In this document: positions 2 through 63,419 of the stretch, piece after piece
Numbering within the stretch: position 1 is the stretch's first letter
How the letters are laid out: every line of letters starts with the position of its first letter
Source of the DNA: a virus
IMG/VR virus record: IMGVR_UViG_3300043419_000731
Coordinates: 1 to 64,000 of that record
Strand: one strand, 5' to 3'
Length of the DNA stretch: 64,000 bases
Made by a program: the position numbers and the translations under genes
Notes under the pieces: generated by a model
Databases searched by the model: none
Told to the model about the DNA's origin: nothing
What the model saw: only the letters and a program-made list of their open reading frames with translations

Positions 2-811
2 AGAACTAGCAAAGCAGGAAAGGGAGATGCAGCAGATCTCGTAAATACTGGAAAAGCAGCTGGAGTTCTTAAGGGTGACCTAAAGGGTGTTGATGTAGGA
101 ACTGAAGCTCTTAAACTAATGAATGGGCCTGTAGATGCAATCACTGCAGCACTTTCATCAAAGGGCATAACAATGGGCAGTGGTGATATTATTATTAATG
201 GTAAAAAGGTTGACCTTGGAGGAGATAAGCCAGTTACGCCAAAGACTGTAACTAAGCCAACAGGTGGTGGAAAGAGCAGTACAACAATTGATCCAAAATC
301 AACACTACCTCCAACTTTTTCTACAAATAAACAAGCAGATAAAGCAGCATCTGATCCTACAAAAAATACATTTACAAGTAGTGACGGATCTAAATGGTTC
401 CTAACATCTAATCCAAAATCAGGAGCCAAATGGACAAGTGGTACATGGAGCATACCAGCAGTCAAAGCTGGATATGGAACAATGAAGCTTGATCCAAAGA
501 TCCCAACAATTGTTGGAGATCGTGGTCCTGAAATGGCATTTGGAGGAATGATTATTCCTAATATGGCAAAGGTTCCATTTGCATCTCCAAGATATGATGT
601 TAATCAGGCAGCTAAGATGTTTGAGCCAATGGCTCCATCTTCAAGCGGAAGTGTAATCAATCTAACACAAAATATCTATCCATCAGATGGCATGAATACA
701 GATGCGTTTGTCAGACAAGTAGTATCAATGACAAAGCAAGCAATTGGACAAGATGCTAAGTTAAATGCTAAAATGGTTGGAACAACTAAGAATGTGAGCA
801 TCAAATCATGA
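2..811 (+). CDS. Tape measure protein, C-terminal part (5' truncated by window)
   Basis: Frame is open from position 2. C-terminal 'IVGDRGPEMAFGGMIIPN' and 'INLTQNIYP' segments are typical of tape-measure C-termini. Tail genes follow. Confidence 0.7.
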   Translation, partial: RTSKAGKGDAADLVNTGKAAGVLKGDLKGVDVGTEALKLMNGPVDAITAALSSKGITMGSGDIIINGKKVDLGGDKPVTPKTVTKPTGGGKSSTTIDPKSTLPPTFSTNKQADKAASDPTKNTFTSSDGSKWFLTSNPKSGAKWTSGTWSIPAVKAGYGTMKLDPKIPTIVGDRGPEMAFGGMIIPNMAKVPFASPRYDVNQAAKMFEPMAPSSSGSVINLTQNIYPSDGMNTDAFVRQVVSMTKQAIGQDAKLNAKMVGTTKNVSIKS

Positions 812-1269
812 CATTGACTTTACCAGTAGGCTCTGCCCTTTATATAGATACCTCTACAACAGACACTCCAACATGGGTGAAGTTGTCAGAGCATAACCGC
901 TCACCTATATCAATTGATACAAATAGAATTGAAAAGACTCAAAGAATGTCAGGCGGAACTTTAAGAAAAGTTTGGATTGCTGATAAGAAAACACTCAGTA
1001 CAAGCTGGAGTATGCTGCCAACAAATGATGCTGCCACCGTAGATGGCGGGTATGGAGCTGGATCCCTAAGATCATTCTATTATGGAGACAAGGGCAAGAA
1101 TACATTTAAGGTAAAGATTTCATATAATGGAGTTTCAGCAAGAGATGAGATATTGCTTATGTCATTTACCTCATGCTCATTTACTGTGGTTAAAAGAAAT
1201 GTAAAAGAAAAAAGCACAGATTCTCCACAAGAATTTTGGGATGTGTCAATCGGTCTGGAAGAAGTATAA
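808..1269 (+). CDS. Putative distal tail / minor tail protein
   Basis: Position directly after tape measure; beta-rich 153 aa; ATGA overlap. Confidence 0.5.
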   Translation: MTLTLPVGSALYIDTSTTDTPTWVKLSEHNRSPISIDTNRIEKTQRMSGGTLRKVWIADKKTLSTSWSMLPTNDAATVDGGYGAGSLRSFYYGDKGKNTFKVKISYNGVSARDEILLMSFTSCSFTVVKRNVKEKSTDSPQEFWDVSIGLEEV

Positions 1270-4200
1270 TGCTAACAGCTTCAACCGCCACAATAAATGC
1301 ATTAAATCAATCTCAATCTATCAACATTAAAAATGGATGCTGGATTGAGTATAACATGAATAGTCTAATTGATGGTAAAGCAATTACTGCTCCAGATGGA
1401 GTTTTAACTGTTACCAAAGAGGATGGGGCAGGAAATAAATATAAGCCTTTTGAAAAGCTATTTCCAATAACATCTATTATTGATCCAAGAAGGCCCAAGA
1501 CGGCTGGAATTAAATATATGATTGCAGGTGACCCAAGTCTAACAAAAGACGGTACATCTGGCGTAATAGATAAATATAAGACTGCAGCTAATTTTGCATC
1601 TAGACTATATTTCTCAGGCGCAAAAATGGTTTATAAATACTGGGTAACACCTGTGGCGTCTGGCACATCATTGTCTAATTGTGTATTGACTGCAACATAT
1701 CCTGCTAATAAAACTGCTGTTGCAAATAAGATAGTTGTTAAATTTGAAACATCACACTCTAAGCCAGTTAATTGGACTTTGAAGCTTGTAGGATTGACAG
1801 GCACCGAAACAACAATAGCAACAAATGTGGTTGTGCCAAGTAATGGAGTTGTTAATCTTTATTATAATGGTAGCGCATGGACAACAACAGAATTTACATC
1901 CCCGCCAGCTGGAGTTAATCTAAGTGCTCTAAAGCTTGAGATCTCATCACTAGATACATCGGGCGGGTATGTAGGAGTAATAGAGCTTTCACCTAGATAT
2001 GTAATAGATGCTACAAGCAGGTTAATATCTATGACAATAAACAAATCATCCTCAGATGATATATCTGGAATCATTCCAGTAGGAAATGTTACAGCAAACT
2101 CAATCTATATTGATCTAAATGCCTATGACAAGAACTATGAGTACTACGATAAGACTGTGGCATTTAATAAAGATAAACTTAACTTGTACAAAGACACAAT
2201 ACTTAGACCATTTGTGAATATAGGATCAGAAAAAATAAACCTTGGAATATTTTACACAGACTCATTTTCTGTCAGTGAGTTTGGAGATGTAAGTATAACT
2301 GGGCTAGATGGGGCTAAAGAGCTTCAGTATATAAAGCCACCAGATATTGTATGTGACAATATGACTTCAGTTGCCATTATTAGAAGACTCCTAGATTCAG
2401 TAGGATTTACAAACTATAATTTTAATTTAACAACAACTGATACAACCGTTATATCCCCATACCACTGGTATACAGATCAGTCCAAGACTGTCTGGGAGCA
2501 TATTCAGGATCTCTGTAAAGATACTCAAATGATAGCAACATTTGATGAGCTTGATGTTTTACAGTTTTATCCAAGAGATTATATCTTTAAAAAAGATAAG
2601 CAAACTAATTTAAAGCTAAGAGATAGAAATATTGGCAGCAACCTTGCAAACATATCTTCTATCTCAGTAGAAAATGTTCCATCCGTAAAGGCAGTTAAGA
2701 TAGTTTATACGCCACAACTTGTTAGCTCATATAGAGGAACAGGCGAAAATCTTTATGATGCTCCAGTGATTACTTTAGGTGCATCTGCAATTGTTAATGA
2801 CATATTGCCAACTCAGCCTTCTTATACAAATAACTCAGGTGAAGTTGCAGCACTAGGCGTTGTTTCTTGTGAGCCAGTAGTTCTCTCTGGTCTTGGATCA
2901 ACTCAGTATTCATTCAAAGGATATTTAGTAATTGAAAAAGAAATTATTGAATATGATGCAATAGAGTACAGCTACGCAGAGGTAGATACTGGAACAGTAA
3001 AATATAAGTGGATAACATCAGATTCAGATGTTGCAAAGTACCAGGGGCTTGCGAAGCCTTCAACATTCAAGCCTACAAATAATTATAGAATTAAAGCTAG
3101 GAATGCATTTGGTGTGCTTGGCCCAGTTACCTCTTCATACACTCAAGATATGATGAATAAGGACATGACGCACAAATTAGGAAATTCAGATGATGGATGG
3201 ACTCAGCTAGAGTGGGACTCCAAGACTGGAATATTTGCCTCAAGCCCAGGATCAATGGTTACAACAAGTATTCCAAGCTATGATCCAAAGGGTCCAGATA
3301 CACAAAAACTTTTATATAATGGCGTATCAAGATCAATGGCTACCCTTTTTGCTAATGACGTTACGTATGTGCCAAGCCCAGATCCAGCAAAGCCAACAGA
3401 AGATAAGTATATTCCAAATACATTTTATAAGATTGCAACAACTACAGCTCAATATACAGGAAGTGCAGACAAGGCTTTTGCTATAGGAGCAAACATGTAC
3501 TTCCCACTTACTGTTGATAAAACAACAAAGAACGTTACTGGCAACCAGATGACTGTAGCTGGACTTGCATTTTCATTAAGTGAAAATAATCAAAGTGGCT
3601 ACATGTTATCAATAGCTACATCTCAAAATAGCAATGGCGATAAAACATATAGGGATGTAAATTTTTATAAAATTGTTAATGGCAAGCCAGAGCCAATGAT
3701 TACAAGCCAAAAAGATACAGATGGGACTATCATTACAAATATTAATGGTGGAGATTTATATAAAGTAGAGATCAAAGCATTAGACATTATGAATGGTACA
3801 GATGAGAATAGGGTATTTAAGATTGCCCTAAATGGAAAGATCGTGGGTGTTACAGATGCTTCCCCTATACCTTTAACAAATAAAATAGGAATAGCTTCTC
3901 TTCAGGGCACAACATCATTTGACTACGTATATACCGCTAGCATTACTAAAGAAGAGTTTGGTCTGACTTCATCTTTTGACGCATACTCAGGATTCCTTTC
4001 TAGCAATTCATCAATGGTTAAAACATTTAGCGATTTTGTTTTTAATAAAACTGATAAGCCAAAGACAGAGGTGTGGCTAAGAGAATTTGGTCCAGTAGCT
4101 CGTGAGCTTAGAAGAATAAATGGCAGATACACAAATGCCCCAGGTTATCCTTTGTATCCATCAATTGTTCAGAATAATGATGTTACTCTAGTTGGCTCCT

Positions 4201-4676
4201 CACTTGATCCATTTACCATGGATATATTTGTCATGAATAATACTGGAGCTTTTGCAGACCTCGCTAATGGTCAAGAAAAATCATTTGTTGTGGTTGGAAA
4301 TCAAATTACGCCTTCTGACTCATTTGAATATATTGATCCAAAGCTTACTGATGAAGACAAGGCAGAAGGAATAGCGTTTGACTCAGTTTGGATTCAAAAA
4401 GAATCTGAAGCGGAAAGCCTATCAAAATGGATTACTGGACAATGGTCTAAGCAGCAGAAGGTGGTAAGTGTAGAGACATTTATAAACCCTCTAATTCAGA
4501 TTGGCGATGTAGTTGAAATATCATATCCTTCAAGCCAGCTATACTCATCTGAAGATACAAATCCAGCATACGCTGTTGGCAAATATATAGTGTTAACTGT
4601 AGAGAATAACTATGATGATACAAGTGCTCCAGTTACTAATTTAATGTGTAGATCAATCTACACTGAAATGGTATAA
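1269..4676 (+). CDS. Large minor tail / baseplate hub-like protein
   Basis: About 1135 aa from ATG 1269 (TAATG overlap). C-terminal 'NPLIQIGDVVEISY' hub-type motif. Tail context. Confidence 0.6.
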   Translation: MLTASTATINALNQSQSINIKNGCWIEYNMNSLIDGKAITAPDGVLTVTKEDGAGNKYKPFEKLFPITSIIDPRRPKTAGIKYMIAGDPSLTKDGTSGVIDKYKTAANFASRLYFSGAKMVYKYWVTPVASGTSLSNCVLTATYPANKTAVANKIVVKFETSHSKPVNWTLKLVGLTGTETTIATNVVVPSNGVVNLYYNGSAWTTTEFTSPPAGVNLSALKLEISSLDTSGGYVGVIELSPRYVIDATSRLISMTINKSSSDDISGIIPVGNVTANSIYIDLNAYDKNYEYYDKTVAFNKDKLNLYKDTILRPFVNIGSEKINLGIFYTDSFSVSEFGDVSITGLDGAKELQYIKPPDIVCDNMTSVAIIRRLLDSVGFTNYNFNLTTTDTTVISPYHWYTDQSKTVWEHIQDLCKDTQMIATFDELDVLQFYPRDYIFKKDKQTNLKLRDRNIGSNLANISSISVENVPSVKAVKIVYTPQLVSSYRGTGENLYDAPVITLGASAIVNDILPTQPSYTNNSGEVAALGVVSCEPVVLSGLGSTQYSFKGYLVIEKEIIEYDAIEYSYAEVDTGTVKYKWITSDSDVAKYQGLAKPSTFKPTNNYRIKARNAFGVLGPVTSSYTQDMMNKDMTHKLGNSDDGWTQLEWDSKTGIFASSPGSMVTTSIPSYDPKGPDTQKLLYNGVSRSMATLFANDVTYVPSPDPAKPTEDKYIPNTFYKIATTTAQYTGSADKAFAIGANMYFPLTVDKTTKNVTGNQMTVAGLAFSLSENNQSGYMLSIATSQNSNGDKTYRDVNFYKIVNGKPEPMITSQKDTDGTIITNINGGDLYKVEIKALDIMNGTDENRVFKIALNGKIVGVTDASPIPLTNKIGIASLQGTTSFDYVYTASITKEEFGLTSSFDAYSGFLSSNSSMVKTFSDFVFNKTDKPKTEVWLREFGPVARELRRINGRYTNAPGYPLYPSIVQNNDVTLVGSSLDPFTMDIFVMNNTGAFADLANGQEKSFVVVGNQITPSDSFEYIDPKLTDEDKAEGIAFDSVWIQKESEAESLSKWITGQWSKQQKVVSVETFINPLIQIGDVVEISYPSSQLYSSEDTNPAYAVGKYIVLTVENNYDDTSAPVTNLMCRSIYTEMV

Positions 4677-13120: not shown

Positions 13121-14049
13121 AAGCAATTGTAAAGGCTCTAGGTCTTCATGAAACATCAGAGGCAAACAATAATTTACTTATGTACTGTCCGTTTCATTCA
13201 AATAGACATACCGCAAGCTTTAGTATTAGCTGTGAGAACGGCGCTTGGCTTTGCTATAACCCAGCATGTGGCGAGTCAGGAAGCTTAATTGAGCTTGTTA
13301 AAAGAGTGCTACATAAAAATGATTTTGAAGCCCTACGCTTTATTAGCTCTAAGCAAAATGAAGCCTTAGAGAATTTTGATGAACTACTTGAAAACTTAAT
13401 GGAAGAAAAGCCAGAGTTTGAGGAGTTTCCACAAGAGACAATAGATAGACTACATGCCGATCTAGCTGGAAATAAAGCGGCAAGAGATTACTTAGGTTCA
13501 AGACTTATTACAAAAGAGTCTGCAGAACACTTTACTCTAGGATACTCTCCAGCAATGAAGATGGTTGTTACTCCAGTTCATAGTCCAGACGGGCTACCGA
13601 TTGGTATTGTAGGCAGATCAATTGAGGGAAAGTCTTTTAAGAACAGTACCAACCTGCCAAAGAGCAAAACGCTATTTAATATTCATCGTGCTAAGAAAAT
13701 TGGAAGCAACGTAATAGTTGTAGAGTCTAACTTCGATGCAATAAGAGTTCATCAGGCTGGATTCCCAAACGTTGTAGCAACCCTTGGGGGATCTTTGTCA
13801 TCAGAGCAGCAAAGACTCCTAAATAAGTATTTCAGCACAATCATTGTAATGACTGATGCTGATGAGGCTGGGCGTGAGCTTGGTCTAAGTATTGCAAATA
13901 GATTGAATACAAAAGATATCTTGTGGGCATCATACGATTATGGTAAGATATACCCTCATGAAGCCAAAGATGTGGGCGATATGACGGAAGAAGAGATAAA
14001 GCAGTGCATAAAAAACTCAGTTTCCCATATTGAATATGTCAGCTGGTAA
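13057..14049 (+). CDS. dnaG: DNA primase (CHC2 zinc finger + TOPRIM)
   Basis: 'CPFH...C...C'; TOPRIM 'VVESNFD' and 'DADEAG'. Confidence 0.9.
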   Translation: MAIRSNYARKADSTQYAVSQVKAIVKALGLHETSEANNNLLMYCPFHSNRHTASFSISCENGAWLCYNPACGESGSLIELVKRVLHKNDFEALRFISSKQNEALENFDELLENLMEEKPEFEEFPQETIDRLHADLAGNKAARDYLGSRLITKESAEHFTLGYSPAMKMVVTPVHSPDGLPIGIVGRSIEGKSFKNSTNLPKSKTLFNIHRAKKIGSNVIVVESNFDAIRVHQAGFPNVVATLGGSLSSEQQRLLNKYFSTIIVMTDADEAGRELGLSIANRLNTKDILWASYDYGKIYPHEAKDVGDMTEEEIKQCIKNSVSHIEYVSW

Positions 14050-54599: not shown

Positions 54600-54767
54600 A
54601 GCCAAAATACACATCTAACTCCTATATCCCCCTCCCTTTTATCTCCTTTCTAAGAGCCTCTGGAAGGCTTTATATGTGGAGTAAAGTGGAGCATTGTGGA
54701 GAATTTATACTCTAGATTATAGTTAATATACTATAGTTATATCTATCTAAAGATATATGTGTAATTG

Positions 54768-54798
54768 AGCATACCCCATCTTAAACGTAATGTCAATA
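54768..54798 (-). promoter_or_regulatory. Leftward promoter CTATTGACA-N17-TATGCT
   Basis: + strand AGCATA 54768-54773, TGTCAA 54791-54796. Confidence 0.5.
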
Positions 54799-55079
54799 GG
54801 ACAAATCGGACATATTTACCCCCATATAGCAGCATATTGATCTAAATTTGTCAAGGGATTTTTTGAGGAATTTTGATCTATTTTGCCATATTCTCTACAG
54901 ATTTGTCGACATTTAATAATGATTATATATTTAATTAGACATATTCTGTAGCATTTTCAGGGGTTTTTGTCAAGCCTTCGTAAATAGAAAAATTTGCCCC
55001 AACTTTCAGGGGTTTTGATCAGCTCTCGTAAATAGAAAATTTTGCCCATATGCCCACAGCATACAAAAAATCCACAGGA

Positions 55080-55100
55080 TGTGGATAACCCTGTGGATAA
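55080..55100. promoter_or_regulatory. Two perfect DnaA boxes (TGTGGATAA = TTATCCACA rc)
   Basis: 55080-55088 and 55092-55100. Confidence 0.7.
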
Positions 55101-55156
55101 TTTGGGCAATATATGTTTATCTATATCACCAGGCATTCTTCTCTCATTGTATATGC

Positions 55157-55613: not shown

Positions 55614-55763
55614 TTACTTTGCCTTGTTGCTTGGTGTTTCTGCAGTAAACTTAATACCCTTGGCCTCTGCCTCTGCTAGAGCTACCTTAGCTGCTCCTGA
55701 GAAACGACCACGCACACCTACTGTAATGCCCTGCTGCTTTAGATATTCACGCTTTGTTGCCAT
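55614..55763 (-). CDS. Lsr2 C-terminal DNA-binding-domain-like microprotein (49 aa)
   Basis: MATKREYLKQQGITVGVRGRFSGAAKVALAEA...; RGR AT-hook-like loop; GAAAGGGG RBS. Confidence 0.6.
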   Translation of the reverse strand: MATKREYLKQQGITVGVRGRFSGAAKVALAEAEAKGIKFTAETPSNKAK

Positions 55764-55855
55764 TTGATTATCCCCTTTCAAGAGATGTTATTTGTACTAA
55801 TTATATAAGATATCCACGATTTTGTAAATACCTTCGTAACATATTTTTTTTGCCC

Positions 55856-55996
55856 TTAGATCAAATTGACTTGCTCAACTCGATCTTTAATTAATTTAGC
55901 AATGATGTTATGGGCTTCGATGTTTTCTGTTTCTGACCCACCCCATAGCAATTGCTGTGCTTTATTTAATTGATCATTGATGTACTCATCACTCAT
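55856..55996 (-). CDS. Hypothetical microprotein (46 aa)
   Basis: Read manually; overlaps upstream stop. Confidence 0.55.
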   Translation of the reverse strand: MSDEYINDQLNKAQQLLWGGSETENIEAHNIIAKLIKDRVEQVNLI

Positions 55997-56363
55997 CTTC
56001 ATCTTCGTCCTCATCCCCGTCATATAGTTCGATGATACCTTCTTCGGTCATCCAGTCCCGTACGGCCTCATAGAGGTCCTCTGTGCCATACTCCAGTGTG
56101 AACCCGTTCTTGTCAGCCTGCGTGAAGAACAGTTCCCACATTTCTTCTTCATCCTTGGCTGTACAGTAATCAGGGTCTCCGCCCTGCATAATGTCAGTCC
56201 AGATAGATAGCGCTACATCCCATGTCCACACCCAAACCAGGGGAGGGAAGACCCCTAGTTCACCAATCTTATCTACAATTAAAGTAATATCCTTGTAGAC
56301 ATCCTTCATTCGTGTACTTTCTTGTAGGTCTAATTGATTACTCATTACGTTCTCCAATCGCAA
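55989..56363 (-). CDS. Hypothetical acidic protein
   Basis: ORF track. Confidence 0.6.
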   Translation of the reverse strand: MRLENVMSNQLDLQESTRMKDVYKDITLIVDKIGELGVFPPLVWVWTWDVALSIWTDIMQGGDPDYCTAKDEEEMWELFFTQADKNGFTLEYGTEDLYEAVRDWMTEEGIIELYDGDEDEDEDE

Positions 56364-56607
56364 ATGATAGTTGATATGTTAGATTATATAAAGATACTAA
56401 TGTATCAAGGGCACCTTCACATCTTGTGCGGTCCATAGAGTCCATGGCTTCTTCTGATTCATCTTCAATTGCTTGTGCTTCTGCCAACTCCTGCTCAGCA
56501 ATGAGCATTAGATTCTTTAGTTCACCGTGCATGATGTCAAGGCCTGATACTCCTGCGTTGACCATGCGCTGTAGGTGTGGCGGTAGTCCGATGTCTTCTG
56601 AATTCAT
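56338..56607 (-). CDS. Hypothetical helical protein
   Basis: MNSEDIG start with AAGGAG RBS. Confidence 0.6.
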   Translation of the reverse strand: MNSEDIGLPPHLQRMVNAGVSGLDIMHGELKNLMLIAEQELAEAQAIEDESEEAMDSMDRTRCEGALDTLVSLYNLTYQLSFAIGERNE

Positions 56608-56738
56608 TACATATCTCCTTCTGATAGAGTTAGCCAAGTAGTACAGTATTTGCAGTGGTCCATTTTTAGCGGGGAAGTAACAGAATGAGTACTATCAATA
56701 ATAGACTCAATCTTGTCTAGAACATCATCCAATGTCAT
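56607..56738 (-). CDS. Hypothetical microprotein (43 aa)
   Basis: Read manually; follows TGTCAG promoter. Confidence 0.5.
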   Translation of the reverse strand: MTLDDVLDKIESIIDSTHSVTSPLKMDHCKYCTTWLTLSEGDM

Positions 56739-56920
56739 TATTCATACCTTTCGTTTGAAGAGTTCATTATATCAGTGGCCACTGACAAAAGGTGCTTGGT
56801 TGCATAAATCTGTCCTTCTATATCTACCACATGGATAGAACAAGGATTCTCCTCTAGGTCTTGTTCTAAACTAATTAGATGCAACTTCATATATTCTAGG
56901 AAGTATGATGATCGTGTCAT
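56738..56920 (-). CDS. Hypothetical protein
   Basis: ORF track. Confidence 0.5.
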   Translation of the reverse strand: MTRSSYFLEYMKLHLISLEQDLEENPCSIHVVDIEGQIYATKHLLSVATDIMNSSNERYE

Positions 56921-56921
56921 C

Positions 56922-57182
56922 CTATGCCTCCAGCTTCATTCTAATAATGTCATATGCGTCAATCGCACCTGCTGAATAATCATTCATTTCGTTGTCGCCT
57001 TCTTCTTCATATTGCTTACGCAATTCAGTTAGTTCAGCAATTCGACCTTCTGCAAATTTGCGGAGGGTATCAATAACATCTAAAGCAGCACATTCTCCGC
57101 AATAGGCATTGTAGTCTTCTTCTTCTGTATATGGAATAGATGTTCCACAATCATTACACCAAGACTCATCGCGCATTCCCAT
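56922..57182 (-). CDS. Hypothetical zinc-binding protein
   Basis: 'CNDC...CGEC'. Confidence 0.55.
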   Translation of the reverse strand: MGMRDESWCNDCGTSIPYTEEEDYNAYCGECAALDVIDTLRKFAEGRIAELTELRKQYEEEGDNEMNDYSAGAIDAYDIIRMKLEA

Positions 57183-57367
57183 TATTCTCCCCATGGCCCT
57201 TCAATAAGTCCTTCTTGATATGCAGCAATAATATTCATGGTTTCATGAAGAATGCAATCGCAATCTCCACCGTTCATGTTTTCCATAAATTCAAAATGAG
57301 AATAGTTATCCTCATAGATAGCAGTAACTAGTTCATGAATTGCATATGGTTTTGTATCACTCTTCAT
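57182..57367 (-). CDS. Hypothetical protein
   Basis: ORF track. Confidence 0.55.
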   Translation of the reverse strand: MKSDTKPYAIHELVTAIYEDNYSHFEFMENMNGGDCDCILHETMNIIAAYQEGLIEGPWGE

Positions 57368-58085
57368 TTGATTCTACCTTTCGATATTCAGGGACATTGG
57401 TTTCTAAGTATATAGCATGGGTCTGACATCCTGCGACAGACTCTAGGTCTGCCTCACCAAGCCAGTTACATTTAGAACAGATTTGATTGTCACAATCTTC
57501 ACACCACTCTAGGGTATCAATAGCATCACAATCACGGCACTTAGTGTCATATTCTGATTCTGAGATAACTACACCACGGAGAATCTCACATTCTCCACCC
57601 CAGCCTGTTTCTTCCTCATATGATAAAGTAAATAGTAATGTTGGGTATTGTGCAGATAGTTTTTGTAGGGCAGGCATAGGGCGTGACCATGCTGTATTAA
57701 AGTTATAATAAACTACTTTGTTATCGCCATTAGCGACAGGCCCTTCAATATATGTATCAGGAAACTTTTCTAGTTCAGATACAGCCACATCCCATTTGGT
57801 ACCCCATTCACGGTTATTGAAGTTGTACCAATCGTTGCCCTCAAATGCCAAACTAAACTTTTCGGGGAAGACAGGTTGCGAATGATATGCATCAAGGTCG
57901 GTAGGTGCAATAATGTTGCGGAAACTAAAGATAGGATTAGGATACTTGCGTTGTTCCACAGAATAAGCCAAATCACCATTAGGTTTAATAGAATCTACAA
58001 ATGGTGTATTCATCTGTTCAACTAATTTATCTACTTGCTCAGGATTACCCTCAATAGTTAATCCATTATATACCCAGTTTGGCAT
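57357..58085 (-). CDS. DUF1281/Api92-like ferredoxin-fold protein with C-terminal Cys cluster
   Basis: 'MPNW..N.L.I.G', 'WYNFN..EWGTKWD', 'F.TAWS.P', 'YEEE.GW.G'. Confidence 0.7.
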   Translation of the reverse strand: MPNWVYNGLTIEGNPEQVDKLVEQMNTPFVDSIKPNGDLAYSVEQRKYPNPIFSFRNIIAPTDLDAYHSQPVFPEKFSLAFEGNDWYNFNNREWGTKWDVAVSELEKFPDTYIEGPVANGDNKVVYYNFNTAWSRPMPALQKLSAQYPTLLFTLSYEEETGWGGECEILRGVVISESEYDTKCRDCDAIDTLEWCEDCDNQICSKCNWLGEADLESVAGCQTHAIYLETNVPEYRKVESNEE

Positions 58086-58264
58086 ATTTATCCTTTCGTT
58101 TGATATATGAGAATTATACACTGGACCACTGACAAATGGAATACATATGCCCTGTGTTCTACACCACATGGATCAGAGCTGATCCCATATTGTGAAATTT
58201 TCAGGGAATTTACTTGACACCCGTAAAAGAGATATGTTACCCTCAGTCTTTGCGGGCAAATAGA

Positions 58265-58290
58265 AATCCCCCAGTCAAAGCTGGGGGATT
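58265..58290 (-). terminator. Intrinsic terminator-like hairpin
   Basis: AATCCCCCAG-tcaaag-CTGGGGGATT, followed on minus strand by TTTCTATTT. Confidence 0.7.
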
Positions 58291-58425
58291 ATGAATATGG
58301 CTGCCTGGATTTCCAACGAAAGAAATAAACCCGCTTTACTTAGCACCTGGCCCGTAGACTAGTAGATGCACCATTTCATTTCCTATTAAAACCAGGACCC
58401 AAGGTCCTGGATTAATTATAGCATA

Positions 58426-58791
58426 TTACTCAACTGAAACTAGGGAGTACTTGTCTACAAAGGATGAGAGACTAGTTGAAAATACTTCCGTAGTCAGGTC
58501 CTCTTCCATTAGTGTAAATGTCTTCTTATTCCAGTCAATGATTGGTACCCTGTGCTCATTATCTGCTAACTCATTAACGGTAATGCCCCAGCCAGTGGTT
58601 GACTGCCATTCTTCATTAATTAAATTAGAGATAGCAATGCGTGTTGCATATGATTCATCAGACCACCTTGGCTCTGCTGCTCGTACAGCGCTAGCCAAAT
58701 TCTGCAACATCATGTGCCCCGCCCAGTGTCCATACAAAAACACTGTATCGCCCTTGCGGTCTTTAAACCCAAAGTTTGCTCTGTCGCCCAT
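58426..58791 (-). CDS. Hypothetical protein (MGDRANF...)
   Basis: ORF track; 'YGHWAG', 'YATRI' conserved-looking motifs. Confidence 0.7.
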   Translation of the reverse strand: MGDRANFGFKDRKGDTVFLYGHWAGHMMLQNLASAVRAAEPRWSDESYATRIAISNLINEEWQSTTGWGITVNELADNEHRVPIIDWNKKTFTLMEEDLTTEVFSTSLSSFVDKYSLVSVE

Positions 58792-58792
58792 T

Positions 58793-58990
58793 TTATTCCG
58801 CCGTTTCTAGTTGTGGTGTTACTTCTACCTTGTTCAATTCTATCACTTCATAGGCCGCTCTGTCTAGGCCCCTTTTATTGCTGTTATAATGATGGCCACA
58901 GAAAGCAAGCTCTCCGCCAACTAGTTTAACTAGATACATAGAGTCTGCAGATCCGCAGGCATCGCATGGAATATATTCTCTATCTCTCAT
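58793..58990 (-). CDS. Zinc-binding hypothetical protein
   Basis: 'CDACG...FCGHH'. Confidence 0.7.
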   Translation of the reverse strand: MRDREYIPCDACGSADSMYLVKLVGGELAFCGHHYNSNKRGLDRAAYEVIELNKVEVTPQLETAE

Positions 58991-59133
58991 AGAGAGCCAC
59001 CCTCAATCATTTCTGCAAGGCGGTCAAGAATCCATGTATCGATATCAGCGATATCAATCTCTGCAAGCTTTTCCATAAGTTCCTCACGAGCAAACTTATA
59101 TCCATCCTCAAAGCCATCTTTATAATCTGACAT
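58987..59133 (-). CDS. Hypothetical microprotein (48 aa)
   Basis: MSDYKDGFEDGYKFAREE...; AGGAG RBS. Confidence 0.6.
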   Translation of the reverse strand: MSDYKDGFEDGYKFAREELMEKLAEIDIADIDTWILDRLAEMIEGGSL

Positions 59134-59141
59134 CTTATCTC

Positions 59142-59345
59142 CTAATATCCTGTCGCTTCTTTATCTGACCAGTATGATTCTGTTAAACCATACTTATCAC
59201 GAATGCGACTTACTTTCTCAATACTACCAGTTCCGATATTGAATGTCAATGGTCCGCATTGTTCTGGGTCCAAACCAATCAACTCCGCTTCCCAGGTAGC
59301 CCGTGCAAAGGCTACCTGAGATGGAGCAGTTAATTCAAAATACAT
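59142..59345 (-). CDS. Hypothetical protein
   Basis: ORF track. Confidence 0.6.
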   Translation of the reverse strand: MYFELTAPSQVAFARATWEAELIGLDPEQCGPLTFNIGTGSIEKVSRIRDKYGLTESYWSDKEATGY

Positions 59346-59959
59346 TAGTACGCACCTTCTTCTACTCGGTCAATCTCAAAGTTATTCACAGACATTTCTG
59401 ATGCATATGAATCAACAGTTAGATTAGAAGATACAAAGTCTTCGATACCGTCAAAGTCACCTGTCAAATCAACTTCAACAGTTGCATCAACACGAACCCA
59501 AACAGTAACTTCAATTTCCTTGGTTAGAGGAACATCGAACATCTCTGCAATCTCAGCCAATGATTCTTGGTCTGATGAATCTGCGTAGTTCTCTTCAAGG
59601 AATGTACGGAGTTGTGATTCCTTGCGGTACCACTGGTTCTGCTTCTCAGTAAGATTCTTAAGTTGCCAAACCATGTGACGAATATCTGATTCAGTATATG
59701 TTTTAGTAATTAGGTCATCACCCTCGACCCACTGCAACTGCATTGTTACTGGTGTTGTTGTTTCTTCCATTGTTTCCTCTTTCGTTGTTGTTGTAGAAGG
59801 AATTGTAGCATCGACCACTGACAAAAGGATGCAGGCGGTCCCGCATCTGCAAGTGAGGTCCATCACACCATTAGGCCATCCATAGCCATCCTTAAATGTG
59901 TATTCAATTAATGCATCACAATCACCTGGGCATATCCAGGTATATTTCTGATAGTTCAT
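59345..59959 (-). CDS. Hypothetical protein with an in-frame internal start at 59770
   Basis: Both ATG 59959 and ATG 59770 have their own TGTCAG promoter and GAAAGAGG RBS. Confidence 0.65.
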   Translation of the reverse strand: MNYQKYTWICPGDCDALIEYTFKDGYGWPNGVMDLTCRCGTACILLSVVDATIPSTTTTKEETMEETTTPVTMQLQWVEGDDLITKTYTESDIRHMVWQLKNLTEKQNQWYRKESQLRTFLEENYADSSDQESLAEIAEMFDVPLTKEIEVTVWVRVDATVEVDLTGDFDGIEDFVSSNLTVDSYASEMSVNNFEIDRVEEGAY

Positions 59960-60111
59960 TTTCCCTCTTTCGTTGTATAGGAGTATTATAGGGCATAGCA
60001 CTGACAAATGGAATAGTTTTCAGGGATTTTCTTTGTGATCCGTAACACAAAAAACTGGCCTTCCCTATTGCGGGCGCATACTTATGCATTGATATGCATA
60101 AATATGTTTTG

Positions 60112-60185
60112 CGATCCATAACGGACTTGAACCGTCGACCTCTACCGTGACAGGGTAGCGCTCTAACCAACTGAGCTAATGGACC
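60112..60185 (-). tRNA. tRNA-Asp(GTC)
   Basis: rc cloverleaf; CTACC-CTGTCAC-GGTAG. Confidence 0.92.
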
Positions 60186-60192
60186 AATAAGG

Positions 60193-60220
60193 TGAGCAGT
60201 TTTAAATCTTGCTCAGGATT
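60193..60220 (-). ncRNA. H-type pseudoknot motif, copy C
   Basis: AATC-CTGAGCAA-GATT-TAAAACT-GCTCA. Confidence 0.7.
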
Positions 60221-60228
60221 ATTTTTAT

Positions 60229-61233
60229 TTAGAAAGTTGCAACCATTCGATACAACTTATTTTTTTCTGCGGTAAGAACAGGGTCAAATCCTGATGCACC
60301 CGCCATAAGTGATTCAGAGTTGCCACGCCCTGAACGATAGTAATCTAGGCGCTCAGTTAGCGCATTGAATGCGCCCCACTTTGTGCCCTTGATTGTGGCG
60401 TTAGTTGGTGAGTTATGATAAAGGTCATCGATTAGGACAACTTTATTTTCCCACTTCTTGATTGCGCCCTTAGCATCTTTCTCAGGCTTTGGATAGATTG
60501 TCTGAATCAACTTTGAGAATTCAGCATCGGTGATTGCTTGAGAATAAAGTGCTTGAGCATTCTTCTCAAATTCATCAAAGTATCCAAGCGCAAGCCCAAG
60601 AGTTTCACGAGCAACTTGAATGCGACCTTCAACAGATTGCGTGTGGCGAATCTTGAAAGATTGCTTAGCGCTCTTCATTGCAAGGTTGAGAGTGTTTTGG
60701 CATACAACACGAACAGGGGTAACCGCTGCTTGAACAGCAACAGAACCATCGTGTGATGTCCATACGATTAGATATAACTTGGTTTCGTCATTGGCGCCTT
60801 GTGGGTCAAGAACCATTGTGCGAGGAATATCCACAGTGCCGAATACAACTTTGCCCTGCTTAAGAGAACCAGCAGATTCCCAACGGCAGTCAGCGTTAGC
60901 ATCGTGAATTGCATCAGCGAATGCAAACAATTCTTCATTCTGCACAGGCTTGTAGCGCTTACCAACAGTAGCAAGAACATCAGTTCCGCCATTGAATGGG
61001 TTATCACGCAACACGAGAGATGCAGTTGAAACATCATTCCAAGATTCTGGAATATGCTCAGCGATTGGAGAAAGACGAACATTCCAATTTGCTAACTTTG
61101 CTTCTTCAAGCATTGTTGCAGTTGTAACTTCTTCATCTTGTGTAAAGATGCGGTTTGCAAGGTTGTGCCAAGCAGGAGCACCACGGAGAGCGAATGCAAC
61201 TTCGCCATTTTCGACTTCGAGATTATGAGCCAT
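60229..61233 (-). CDS. DUF932/DUF945 phage-plasmid protein
   Basis: 'MAH......AWHNL', 'Y.PVQN.E.F', 'ESAGSL..G..VF', 'SHDGS', 'RVVC.NTL', 'IRHT'. Confidence 0.85.
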   Translation of the reverse strand: MAHNLEVENGEVAFALRGAPAWHNLANRIFTQDEEVTTATMLEEAKLANWNVRLSPIAEHIPESWNDVSTASLVLRDNPFNGGTDVLATVGKRYKPVQNEELFAFADAIHDANADCRWESAGSLKQGKVVFGTVDIPRTMVLDPQGANDETKLYLIVWTSHDGSVAVQAAVTPVRVVCQNTLNLAMKSAKQSFKIRHTQSVEGRIQVARETLGLALGYFDEFEKNAQALYSQAITDAEFSKLIQTIYPKPEKDAKGAIKKWENKVVLIDDLYHNSPTNATIKGTKWGAFNALTERLDYYRSGRGNSESLMAGASGFDPVLTAEKNKLYRMVATF

Positions 61234-61410
61234 TTTTTGCCTTTCGTTTGGTTGATTAAGCAATTATAACAGGTGGGTCTGACATTTACAAGGTTAGTTA
61301 GTCATTTGTCCGAATTGTCTGACGTGATCAATCTCACAAATTTTCAGGGTTTTCCACAGATCCCCGTAACGCTGTGGATAACCCCGCAAAAGCGGGGGCC
61401 GAGCTGGGGA

Positions 61411-61671
61411 TTAACTCCCCAACTCTACCTTAGTCGCATTTCGAATTATGTTTTTATTAAATTCAACTGTCTTCTCATCAAGAAACATTGCAGTTGTCTT
61501 TTTCTTTTTTACATTATCAAAAACGTAAGCATTTACTTTGCCGCTAAAGTTTCTGATGTTACTGAATACTAATTCAGTTAAGTATTCTTTATCAACACCT
61601 TGATCCGAATAAATCGTGATGTCGTTCATTTTGTTTGCATCGTAGATTTCTACTCTGAAACGATTTGCCAT
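61411..61671 (-). CDS. Hypothetical protein
   Basis: ORF track. Confidence 0.6.
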   Translation of the reverse strand: MANRFRVEIYDANKMNDITIYSDQGVDKEYLTELVFSNIRNFSGKVNAYVFDNVKKKKTTAMFLDEKTVEFNKNIIRNATKVELGS

Positions 61672-61705
61672 TGTATTACCTTTGTTAGTAGTTGTCCCCG
61701 AAGGG

Positions 61706-61733
61706 AGAGCAGTTTGGCGACATACTCAGGTCG
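61706..61733 (-). ncRNA. H-type pseudoknot motif, copy B
   Basis: CGAC-CTGAGTAT-GTCG-CCAAACT-GCTCT. Confidence 0.7.
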
Positions 61734-61742
61734 TTGGATTAG

Positions 61743-62159
61743 TTAGAGATAACGAGCAATTTGCTTCATTGTTGAAGCATTAACTGTTTCCTCATCTGTC
61801 ATCTTTAGAATTGTGAGAGCATTTGTGATGTCCTCTACAATTTCGTTGTATGAGTGCTGGTGCATAATTGTAAAATCACGCTGTGGCTCTGTTGGCAAAT
61901 CTTTCTCTGCAACTGTCAAATCAAAGTCAATGTTGAGAGTGTTATTCCAAGAGCGATAAGAAGTGCGAAGGTTCTCTGACTTCTTGATGTTTGCGATTGC
62001 ATAATCCTGAAGTTCCTTCTGCCAAATCTTACGAGCCTTTTCATACTTAGCCTCGTTTGCGCCTTGCTCAGCATACTCTTTCTTGATTGTTGCTAACTTT
62101 GTTTCCAAAGCCTTAATTACCTTTGGTGTTGCCACCTTTACTGTGATTGCTCTTGACAT
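61743..62159 (-). CDS. Hypothetical coiled-coil protein
   Basis: ORF track; promoter plus GAAAGAGG RBS. Confidence 0.7.
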   Translation of the reverse strand: MSRAITVKVATPKVIKALETKLATIKKEYAEQGANEAKYEKARKIWQKELQDYAIANIKKSENLRTSYRSWNNTLNIDFDLTVAEKDLPTEPQRDFTIMHQHSYNEIVEDITNALTILKMTDEETVNASTMKQIARYL

Positions 62160-62298
62160 TTTTCCTCTTTCGTTGGTTGGTTGATGTTATGAGTATTATA
62201 GCAGGGGGGTCTGACATTTCCCCCGAAGGGGGGAGAGTTCTTACTTACGACATTGGGCTAGAACACTCTCCTAAACTGCCCCTGTTTCGATTATTTAG

Positions 62299-62475
62299 TT
62301 ATACTAGAGAACTTGCTGAAACTGTTGTCCAGCGTGTTTCCTTCGTTGGCATTTCTAGCAACACACGCACCGAGCCAGATGCTTGTGGGTGGATTTCTTT
62401 AATCACACCTGTCTTCTTTGACTTGAGGGTGGTGAATAAATCTCCAACCTGATACAACTTGTCTTGTATTGTCAT
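62299..62475 (-). CDS. Small SH3-like beta protein
   Basis: MTIQDKLYQVGDLFTT..KTGVIKEI..; GAAGGAAG RBS. Confidence 0.6.
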   Translation of the reverse strand: MTIQDKLYQVGDLFTTLKSKKTGVIKEIHPQASGSVRVLLEMPTKETRWTTVSASSLV

Positions 62476-62563
62476 TTGCTTCCTTCTTTCTGTGTAGGGT
62501 AGTATTGTAGCATTGGGGTCTGACATCTGTCTAGCCCTATCTCACTATTTGAGAGAATTATTG

Positions 62564-62579
62564 TGTGATTAGTATCACA
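62564..62579. promoter_or_regulatory. Perfect CRP/GlxR-type palindrome TGTGA-N6-TCACA
   Basis: TGTGATTAGTATCACA. Confidence 0.6.
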
Positions 62580-62715
62580 AGTAGTCGGTTAGGTCGCCAT
62601 CCATTATTTCGCTGACATCCACGCCTTCAGACTCAGCAATTGCATCCCATAGATCGGATTCTGTAAAATCTCCTTCAGGGTGCCACTCAGCTAAAATCTC
62701 ATAGACATTACTCAT
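62575..62715 (-). CDS. Acidic microprotein (46 aa)
   Basis: Read manually; GGAGG RBS. Confidence 0.55.
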   Translation of the reverse strand: MSNVYEILAEWHPEGDFTESDLWDAIAESEGVDVSEIMDGDLTDYL

Positions 62716-62983
62716 CGTAGTCCTCCTGTGGTAGCCAAGCATCTAGGTGGTGAGCATCTACGATAGCCGATGCAGGGCAAGTATCTTGACCTCGCCAAAA
62801 TACGCCTTCAGGAAGGCTAATCTCACGGGAGTAGTCCTCCTCATAGTATGCGTCAATTGCTTCGATGCAAGCATCTACCATAGCGACGGGGACGGGTGGA
62901 TAATGATTAGCCTGAAGGTGATAAGCAAGTCCAGCCTCAAGTGATAAATCTTCTGCAAGTCCTACTGCGGTTGTGTATCCCAT
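62708..62983 (-). CDS. Hypothetical protein
   Basis: 'HLQ.NHYPPVP..MV..C..AI' conserved-looking motif. Confidence 0.7.
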   Translation of the reverse strand: MGYTTAVGLAEDLSLEAGLAYHLQANHYPPVPVAMVDACIEAIDAYYEEDYSREISLPEGVFWRGQDTCPASAIVDAHHLDAWLPQEDYDE

Positions 62984-63057
62984 TTTATTTCCTTTGTTCG
63001 TTGGTTGATAAGAGTATTGTATCAGGGGGCACTGACATTATCAGTGCCCCCATTAGA

Positions 63058-63276
63058 TTATTTAGAGATAGATAGTTCTGCCCAAGAGTAGCCCGTGTTT
63101 GCAACTTCCAAAACCTTTGCTATTTCTAGTGCAGCGTGTGTTGCTTCTGAACACATCTTTGTAAGTTCATCCTCAGATAAAGATAATAGGGCAGGCAGTA
63201 ATCGAGCCTCAATTTTATCTAGGTCAATAGTAGCCATAAAACTAACTGTGTGTGGTACTTTCATTACATTAGCCAT
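63058..63276 (-). CDS. Hypothetical protein
   Basis: ORF track; promoter plus RBS. Confidence 0.6.
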   Translation of the reverse strand: MANVMKVPHTVSFMATIDLDKIEARLLPALLSLSEDELTKMCSEATHAALEIAKVLEVANTGYSWAELSISK

Positions 63277-63360
63277 TTGTTGCCTTTCGTTGTTGGTATG
63301 AGAGTATTATAGCCGAAGCCACTGACATTTCATAATCCATTTACGGCGTGTCGCAGCTTT

Positions 63361-63419
63361 TGTGAGAATGATCACAAATTTTCAGGGTCTGTGGATAACT
63401 CCCGTAAGCCTGTGGAAAA
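63361..63419. promoter_or_regulatory. Perfect CRP-type site, TTTTCAGGG motif and DnaA boxes
   Basis: TGTGAGAATGATCACA 63361-63376; TGTGGATAA 63390-63398; TGTGGAAAA 63411-63419. Confidence 0.65.

Follow-up and report, generated by a model that had tools for sequence, protein, structure and literature searches.

A predicted array of PafBC-type promoters ahead of a block of small genes in an uncultured lake phage

Introduction

PafBC promoters, whose motif is also known by the alias RecA-NDp, precede DNA-damage genes in Actinomycetales, according to the available parts of two reports (PMC6789036, PMC5087735). The available text of a third report (PMC8635444) gives their in vivo consensus as the 22-nucleotide (nt) sequence tGTCgg(N10)tA(N3)T, the 5′ part of which lies at positions -23 to -28 (the "-26 element") and is combined with a canonical SigA -10 element, with no consensus at -35. 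From the same text, residues R46 and R50 of PafB contact two guanines of the strictly conserved GTC triplet, PafC touches domain 4 of SigA, and RNA polymerase (RNAP) containing SigA does not use these promoters when PafBC is missing; the mechanism was named sigma adaptation. Activation of PafBC is ascribed to single-stranded DNA (ssDNA) at its WYL domains (PMC11804915, in the part available). Here, we deal with a set of sites that closely match this description in a 64,000-nt stretch of viral DNA, bases 1-64000 of the 120,465-bp IMG/VR virus record IMGVR_UViG_3300043419_000731. Below, "the window" means this whole stretch, and positions beyond 64,000 are those of the record. The sites are probably PafBC-type hybrid promoters carried by a phage and started by host SigA-RNAP together with ssDNA-activated PafBC.

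The consensus that Gamulin et al. reportedly gave in 2004, tTGTCRgtg-N8-TAnnnT, allows A as the fifth base of the box through its R, and Mueller et al. are said to have provided in 2018 lists of PafBC sites obtained by chromatin immunoprecipitation sequencing. Titles and openings of abstracts in the literature yielded no phage-borne PafBC promoters; one paper on PafBC and mycobacteriophage resistance, reportedly by Rafique et al. (2025), may bear on this. The promoter class is a known one, and its arrayed use on a phage is not in print as far as this search extended. The phage itself is uncultured, comes from a lake, looks lytic and has an actinobacterial host.

Results

Sites in the window and in the whole record

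The original prediction had placed nine minus-strand copies of TGTCAG-N10-TAYAAT in the window, and each of them was found at its place. A relaxed copy, at 57407-57428, was absent from it. The predicted promoters of the window are as follows (lengths of gene products in amino acids, aa):

63306-63327, minus strand: predicted PafBC-type promoter, TGTCAG-10 nt-TATAAT; ATG of a 72-aa gene at 63276
63016-63037, minus strand: predicted PafBC-type promoter, TGTCAG-10 nt-TACAAT, TGn ahead of the -10; ATG of a 91-aa gene at 62983
62504-62525, minus strand: predicted PafBC-type promoter, TACAAT, TGn; ATG of a 58-aa gene at 62475; variant leader GAAAGAAGG
62195-62216, minus strand: predicted PafBC-type promoter, TATAAT, TGn; ATG of a 138-aa gene at 62159; hairpin immediately upstream
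61263-61284, minus strand: predicted PafBC-type promoter of the DUF932 gene; ATG at 61233
59985-60006, minus strand: predicted PafBC-type promoter, TATAAT; ATG at 59959
59802-59823, minus strand: predicted PafBC-type promoter, TACAAT, TGn, within the open frame begun at 59959; ATG at 59770
58113-58134, minus strand: predicted PafBC-type promoter, TATAAT; ATG of the 242-aa Api92-like (DUF1281_C) gene at 58085
57407-57428, minus strand: relaxed copy, TGTCAG-10 nt-TATACT, in the 3′ end of the 242-aa gene; ATG of a 61-aa gene at 57367
56766-56787, minus strand: predicted PafBC-type promoter, TATAAT, TGn; ATG at 56738

The frame that starts at 59959 encloses the promoter at 59802-59823 together with its leader and continues without a break in the reading frame into the gene that follows (204 aa altogether), so that the arrangement between 59770 and 59959 is either a fused gene pair or a promoter embedded in coding sequence.

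Four more copies lie past the window end, their boxes starting at 64102, 64524, 65217 and 66262 of the record (the last occupies 66241-66262). In the whole record, the strict motif occurs 12 times, from 56,766 to 65,217 and always on the minus strand, and the relaxed motif (TGTCRG, TAnnnT) is found 14 times on that strand between 56,766 and 66,262; three further relaxed matches, at 14037, 72882 and 109655, look like chance. Thirteen of the 14 boxes are TGTCAG and one is TGTCGG, GTC being present in every one of them, while the -10 element is TAYAAT at 13 sites, TATACT at one and TAnnnT at all 14. The spacing is exactly 10 nt, as had been claimed: in the record, TAYAAT follows TGTCAG 12 times at this distance and never at any other spacer of 4-19 nt. 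In 100 dinucleotide-preserving shuffles of the window, the strict motif occurred 0.03 times on average and once at most, compared with nine copies in the real sequence. Since TGTCAG by itself is not enriched (37 occurrences vs. 35.3 expected), it follows that the signal resides in its pairing with a -10 element at a fixed distance.

When the -10 hexamer is taken as -12 to -7, the box falls at -28 to -23 and not at -35, in agreement with the original prediction. Among 483 unique sites from relatives of the phage, the columns around -35 contain at most 0.13 bit each. G+C makes up 64% of the ten-base spacers, against about 38-42% of the genome; the spacers begin with TG at six sites, with ACC at six and otherwise at two; TG stands ahead of the -10 in 6 of the 14 copies and G at -14 in 11. 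The three bases 5′ of the box are A/T-rich. The distance from a copy to the ATG is 25-39 nt, with a purine-rich ribosome site at each. Box, 10-nt register, GTC and TAnnnT, as published for PafBC promoters, are thus found together at all 14 phage sites, with no -35 element. The original prediction had taken the class for an undescribed one; in sequence, spacing and position it equals the published PafBC/RecA-NDp promoter (PMC8635444, available part).

Other classes of element were considered and rejected. If the box were read on the opposite strand as a -35 element, CTGACA, a -10-like signal would be expected at the matching distance, and the logo contains none. A sigma-54-like -24/-12 promoter was rejected because of the spacing and the TATAAT element; sigma-54 is not known from Actinobacteria. 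At 56787, box and spacer make the palindrome TCAGTGG/CCACTGA, and at 63037 the box is the 3′ arm of an 11-bp hairpin formed with the sequence immediately upstream; an inverted-repeat or hairpin promoter would hold for these two sites only and is not general.

The leader downstream of the promoters needs a correction. Eight of the nine copies had been said to be followed by a common leader; the ACGAAAG core is present behind seven, and the count of eight is reached only if one variant is included. Two window copies have variant leaders, 63037 (ACGAACAAAGG) and 62525 (CAGAAAGAAGG). The seven cores are located as follows:

56748-63290 (range), minus strand: seven ACGAAAG cores, 12-22 nt past the -10 element, with first bases at 56754, 58099, 59785, 59973, 61247, 62173 and 63290

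Genome-wide, ACGAAAG occurs 12 times on the minus strand, always between 56.7 and 65.2 kb, ten times behind box promoters and twice at internal genes; the core therefore goes along with gene starts and not with the promoter. GAAAGG is complementary to CCUUUC, the 3′ terminus of 16S rRNA of the candidate hosts (see below). One copy of GGATCACCTCCTTTC is present in each of two candidate host genomes, in one of them at positions 1501-1515 of a locus (L286) in which the Rfam match to small-subunit rRNA stops at 1514. The leader therefore reads as a short CA-rich untranslated region with a putative Shine-Dalgarno variant.

A second kind of element was seen in the same region. Palindromes of the CRP/GlxR type, TGTGA-N6-TCACA with at most one mismatch, occur 14 times in the genome, 11 of them within 57.4-66.6 kb (from 57488 to 63376 in the window and on to 66573 of the record) and six of these 11 perfect. 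Seven, at 60034, 61323, 62564, 63361, 64573, 65257 and 66291, lie 27-48 nt upstream of a PafBC-type box, which suggests that a second host factor may act at the same promoters.

Comparison with described promoter systems

With PafBC/RecA-NDp promoters the phage sites share (T)GTC(R)G at -28 to -23, the 10-nt gap to a TAnnnT of the SigA type, the missing -35 element and the non-palindromic character. They differ in being arrayed, 14 in 9.5 kb, ahead of small genes of unknown function and not of repair genes; in a -10 element that is full consensus TAYAAT, or TATACT, often with TG; and in that no LexA box accompanies them, PafBC dependence being predicted in their case. The block that holds the sites contains no LexA box, and the only match in the genome with no more than two mismatches is at 73,964.

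Middle promoters of phage T4, which have a MotA box near -30 and depend on sigma appropriation by MotA/AsiA, are likewise a class of phage promoters that lack a -35 element; a protein there connects sigma region 4 with a box that precedes an ordinary -10. In sequence and register, the box of the present phage departs from the MotA consensus, and the activator would here be that of the host, acting without sigma remodelling. Extended -10 promoters (TGnTATAAT) also lack a -35 element, and TG is found in 6 of the 14 phage copies and is invariant at the DUF932 promoter; such promoters have, however, no invariant extra box at a fixed 10 nt, and eight phage copies have no TG. Prophage induction controlled by LexA/RecA similarly ties phage expression to host sensing of ssDNA, whereas in this phage the control would be that of a positive activator at many promoters, and neither an integrase nor LexA boxes were found. 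The comparison with T4 MotA, already drawn in the original prediction, is apt, and the available text of PMC8635444 makes the same one, with MotA/AsiA.

The motif in related viruses

In order to follow the motif in relatives, 80 IMG/VR loci were picked solely by a match to the DUF932 protein (91-97% identical). These loci contain 673 strict copies on the gene strand and none on the opposite strand; other spacers of 6-15 nt total 12. As a footprint independent of the motif, the DUF932 start was located in all 80 loci and the region upstream was taken, which gave 57 unique sequences. TGTCAG with the 10-nt gap is present in 57 of 57, followed by TATAAT in 19 and TATACT in 38. There are 21 different spacers among the 57, the distance from the box promoter to the ATG is 26-33 nt, and the TG before the -10 is invariant. 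Box, register and -10 element are thus held while the intervening sequence drifts, which means that the box and its spacing are under selection.

These data bear on two rivals. That the array is a chance pattern, or the functionless product of recent duplications, has a practically negligible probability. The small size of the motif is all that speaks for it; against it are the excess over shuffled sequence, the restriction to one strand, the position of each copy ahead of a gene start and the retention of the motif in 80 of 80 related loci while spacers drift. Moreover, comparison of the 60 nt upstream of each of the 14 copies gave a mean identity of 0.28 and a maximum of 0.43; with flanks as unrelated as these, recent duplication is not the origin of the copies.

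The main rival, itself unlikely, is that the sites are activator-free extended -10 promoters whose box serves as a sink that keeps PafBC from the repair genes of the host, or as an operator through which they are shut off later. It agrees with the perfect -10 elements, with TG at six and G at -14 at 11 of the 14 sites and with the invariant TG at the DUF932 promoter, and 14 sites per genome multiplied by the phage copy number could bind much PafBC. However, neither a mere sink nor a free-standing operator needs an invariant box in an absolute 10-nt register, and the published RNAP-SigA does not use such promoters without PafBC (available part of PMC8635444).

A scan of IMG/VR with one form of the motif retrieved at least 120 stretches. 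Among the matches listed, most multi-copy stretches share proteins with the phage and some share only 0-5, at 52-70% identity; eight whole records carry 5-25 copies on one strand, 0-2 on the other and 0-1 of the backward control; and a 28.9-kb fragment has 25 copies, mostly TGTCGGTGG. Nine copies were counted on one strand of a complete 100-kb record that bears terminal repeats, and in a tblastn comparison its polymerase and terminase are ca. 54% and a portal-sized protein ca. 51% identical to those of the phage. In a 51-kb fragment, tblastn found the same portal-sized protein at ca. 52% and a DUF932 protein at 53% identity. Multi-copy records with few shared proteins appear from these similarities to be distant relatives of the phage.

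Four cultured Streptomyces relatives gave 0-3 loose matches (BillNye 0; Paradiddles, Ankus and Sham 1-3) vs. 0-2 for the controls. Cultured phages of Planktophila, E7 and F5, are described in the available part of PMC10202952.

An RNA library can also contain DNA. In three freshwater metatranscriptome runs, 6-12% of the sampled words of the region were present, one further run being uncertain. RNA contigs of relatives cover much of the block; as contigs, in which no starts or ends were seen, they carry no weight either way. One such contig spans the promoter at 63037 and speaks neither for nor against a start there.

Candidate readers of the box in phage and host

The original prediction had proposed either an activator or a sigma variant. 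The activator half agrees with a -35-less SigA -10 combined with an activator box near -26. As to the sigma half, Sigma70_r2 had no match in the phage, and sigma region 4 gave a single weak match, below the cut-off, in a 49-residue frame. A sigma variant is an unlikely reader of these sites. No WYL domain was found in the phage at E ≤ 0.1, and phmmer detected no relatives of PafB or PafC among its frames of at least 30 residues (best E 1.5); the lowest E in the table of searches with the PafB/PafC locus, 0.08, belongs to a neighbouring tatC-like frame used as the query. MotCF and AsiA also gave no match at E ≤ 0.1, a weak negative since the control genomes gave none either.

Lake actinobacteria of the Candidatus (Ca.) Nanopelagicaceae type are the candidate hosts. 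Three small lake actinobacterial genomes, including isolate MKE-14 of Ca. Nanopelagicaceae, have two adjacent WYL genes each, of ca. 300-340 residues. PafB of MKE-14 matched chain AY of PDB entry 7p5x with an E of 1.4e-35 and keeps both arginines of RMFERDK; the long frame that follows the WYL pair in MKE-14 looks like tatC. In two small lake genomes, TGTCAG-N10-TAnnnT is located ca. 200 nt upstream of recA and is directly followed by a LexA-type TCGAAC-N4-GTTCGG, an arrangement like that at mycobacterial recA. Host TGTCRGTG sites were found 6-47 nt ahead of frames, including one for a TPR protein confirmed by Pfam; other frames behind TGTCRGTG read as probable carD, a LysM gene with a LexA-type box, a DnaQ-like exonuclease and a cytosine methylase.

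The strict motif is present in 2 of 401 genomes sampled from the class, once in each, and in 6 of 61 genomes of the Nanopelagicaceae family (controls 1 and 2), with 0-2 copies per genome. MKE-14 is one of the two class genomes. In both, the strict site lies ahead of a short leader and a vWA gene, which in MKE-14 is followed by a dual-specificity phosphatase gene. The loose motif and its backward control were equally frequent in host genomes (16 vs. 16, 11 vs. 11 and 9 vs. 14), and of the loose matches only those ahead of genes look real. A role of the box as a general promoter element of host RNAP was rejected, since the strict form is rare and the loose form is at control level.

The operon of the vWA and dual-specificity phosphatase genes was seen at loci L141, L142, L143 and L104, of Ca. 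Nanopelagicaceae or related bacteria, and the only strict TGTCAG-N10-TAYAAT was seen there. In its short CA-rich leader and in the small frame upstream, this operon is very much like the phage cassette, and one genome with this operon has two strict promoters 82 nt apart.

As judged from these searches, the activator is most likely host PafBC and not a phage protein. The opposite possibility, that the box is read by a diverged phage protein which imitates PafB or acts like T4 MotA, independently of DNA damage in the host, is improbable; such a DNA-binding protein would have to be too unlike PafB to be detected. It would fit the confinement of the arrays to one clade of lake phages, their absence from the four cultured Streptomyces relatives and the lack of a known family for most genes of the block. 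On the other hand, no WYL, PafB/C, sigma, MotCF or AsiA relative was found, an activator of exactly this motif is already present in the host lineage and in use at recA, and a factor made from these promoters could not start them.

It is very improbable that the sites form an undescribed class read by a sigma variant or by an activator unrelated to PafBC. The tie to PafBC sites is drawn from sequence, and the spacer subtypes and the A/T runs upstream of the box lie outside the published consensus. Yet 12 specified positions and the spacing match the published motif, the same motif precedes recA in likely host lineages, and no Sigma70_r2 was found in the phage.

Genome context

Large proteins of the phage include tail proteins, a DnaB-like helicase, a DnaE-type polymerase and a terminase. 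The polymerase shares 56-58% identity with its counterparts in BillNye, Paradiddles and related Streptomyces phages (family Stanwilliamsviridae). A WhiB-family gene at 38.4 kb marks the host as actinobacterial. Integrases of the tyrosine and of the serine type were both looked for in the phage and not found, and megablast of the region against cultured phages gave no match.

Genes are directed rightward at 0-54 kb and at 73.6-120 kb. A leftward block of ca. 35 small genes, at 54.4-66.4 kb, contains every box promoter. Pfam and PHROGs searches with 30 block proteins identified DUF932, DUF1281_C, an Lsr2-like protein and three PHROG families of unknown function; the remainder matched nothing. 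The following features belong to the block or adjoin its promoters:

55989-63276, minus strand: in-window part of the small-gene block served by the predicted promoters, mostly without known families
60229-61233, minus strand: DUF932 gene, 334 aa, within the block
60111-60185, minus strand: tRNA-Asp, within the block
57357-58085, minus strand: Api92-like (DUF1281_C) gene, 242 aa, within the block
55800-55828, minus strand: canonical -35/-10 promoter, TTTACA-17 nt-TATAAT, ahead of the Lsr2-like gene
55614-55763, minus strand: Lsr2-like DNA-bridging gene, 49 aa (phrog_6269, E 1.3e-07)

The Lsr2-like gene lies behind this canonical promoter and not behind a box promoter. Ordinary phage promoters, TTGACA-like and TATAAT-like elements separated by 16-18 nt, are also present at the helicase/primase/polymerase region and at tRNA clusters. 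Since ordinary SigA-type promoters exist elsewhere in the phage, the box promoters constitute a separate, second class.

Several further observations concern the record as a whole. Its ends repeat each other with small differences (window 745-774 and 790-4676 vs. record 116463-120394); the repeat is ca. 4 kb long, includes frames of 159 and 1160 aa, and is probably a terminal redundancy of the assembly, though IMG/VR gives no end repeats. At 54600-55140 of the window, a gene-poor junction separates the two directions of transcription. It contains two DnaA-box-like 9-mers, a twice-repeated unit GGGCAAA-TTTTCTATTTACGA, CCCTGAAAA motifs and several sites resembling canonical promoters, and may be an origin or control region. 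Exact DnaA-box-like 9-mers, TTATCCACA, occur eight times in the genome, six of them between 55.0 and 65.4 kb (window 55080-55100, 61373 and 63390; record 65286 and 65306), and several adjoin hairpins past stop codons. Finally, at least seven contigs of G002, a metagenome-assembled genome labelled Bacteroidia, contain 13 promoter patterns of the phage type and a WhiB 76% identical to that of the phage; these are probably phage contigs that were mis-binned.

Discussion

According to the preferred reading, host SigA would read a -10 element of perfect sequence, TAYAAT, in many cases with TG or G close upstream, and the ssDNA-activated host heterodimer PafBC would insert between sigma region 4 and DNA and recognise GTC within the TGTCAG box (-28 to -23), in place of the absent -35 contact, as in sigma adaptation. 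The 14 promoters, each with a CA-rich leader of 18-32 nt and a Shine-Dalgarno sequence of the GAAAGG type, would drive ca. 35 small genes on one strand at 56-66 kb. The phage, lacking an activator of its own, would in this way plug the block into the ssDNA alarm of the host. We infer PafBC binding at the sites, the transcription starts, the timing of expression and the identity of the host. That these are early host-takeover genes, as the original prediction had it, is a guess, given that most of these small genes belong to no known family.

Several points weigh against host PafBC as the reader. With perfect -10 elements and the TG and G residues upstream of them, the promoters might fire without an activator, like extended -10 promoters. 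The fifth base of the box is A at 13 of 14 sites, while the mycobacterial consensus has g, and six of the 14 spacers begin with ACC and not with the TG of host sites. PafBC needs ssDNA, which would already have to be there at the very start of infection if the genes are truly early. The four cultured Streptomyces relatives lack arrays, which leaves the reading without support from laboratory phages, and the bacteria in which PafBC was recognised are candidate hosts. At the phage sites, starts, binding and expression are predictions from the DNA sequence.

A broader reading, which we hold tentatively and with slightly less than even confidence, is that a whole clade of abundant lake phages runs its block of small genes of an early type on the host ssDNA alarm, with 10-25 PafBC boxes per genome and no activator of its own. 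The first ssDNA of the infection would switch these genes on, and the array may at the same time draw PafBC off host repair or defence genes. Proposed sources of this ssDNA would be nicks or gaps in the DNA that enters the cell, its cleavage by nucleases of the host or the onset of replication. If this clade-wide reading is true, these phages would be the first found to exploit sigma adaptation, and a damage-triggered counter-defence circuit would exist in the most abundant freshwater bacteria.

Until now, PafBC-type promoters, which are short and modular, have been known from DNA-damage genes of bacteria. If their assignment in the phage is correct, it suggests that PafBC becomes active in infection, and the motif would serve as a signature by which the actinobacterial hosts of uncultured phages could be predicted from sequence. 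Lake actinophages would then time a whole gene block by the ssDNA sensor of the host and not by a phage activator, and sigma adaptation would extend from the stress response to the conflict between virus and host.

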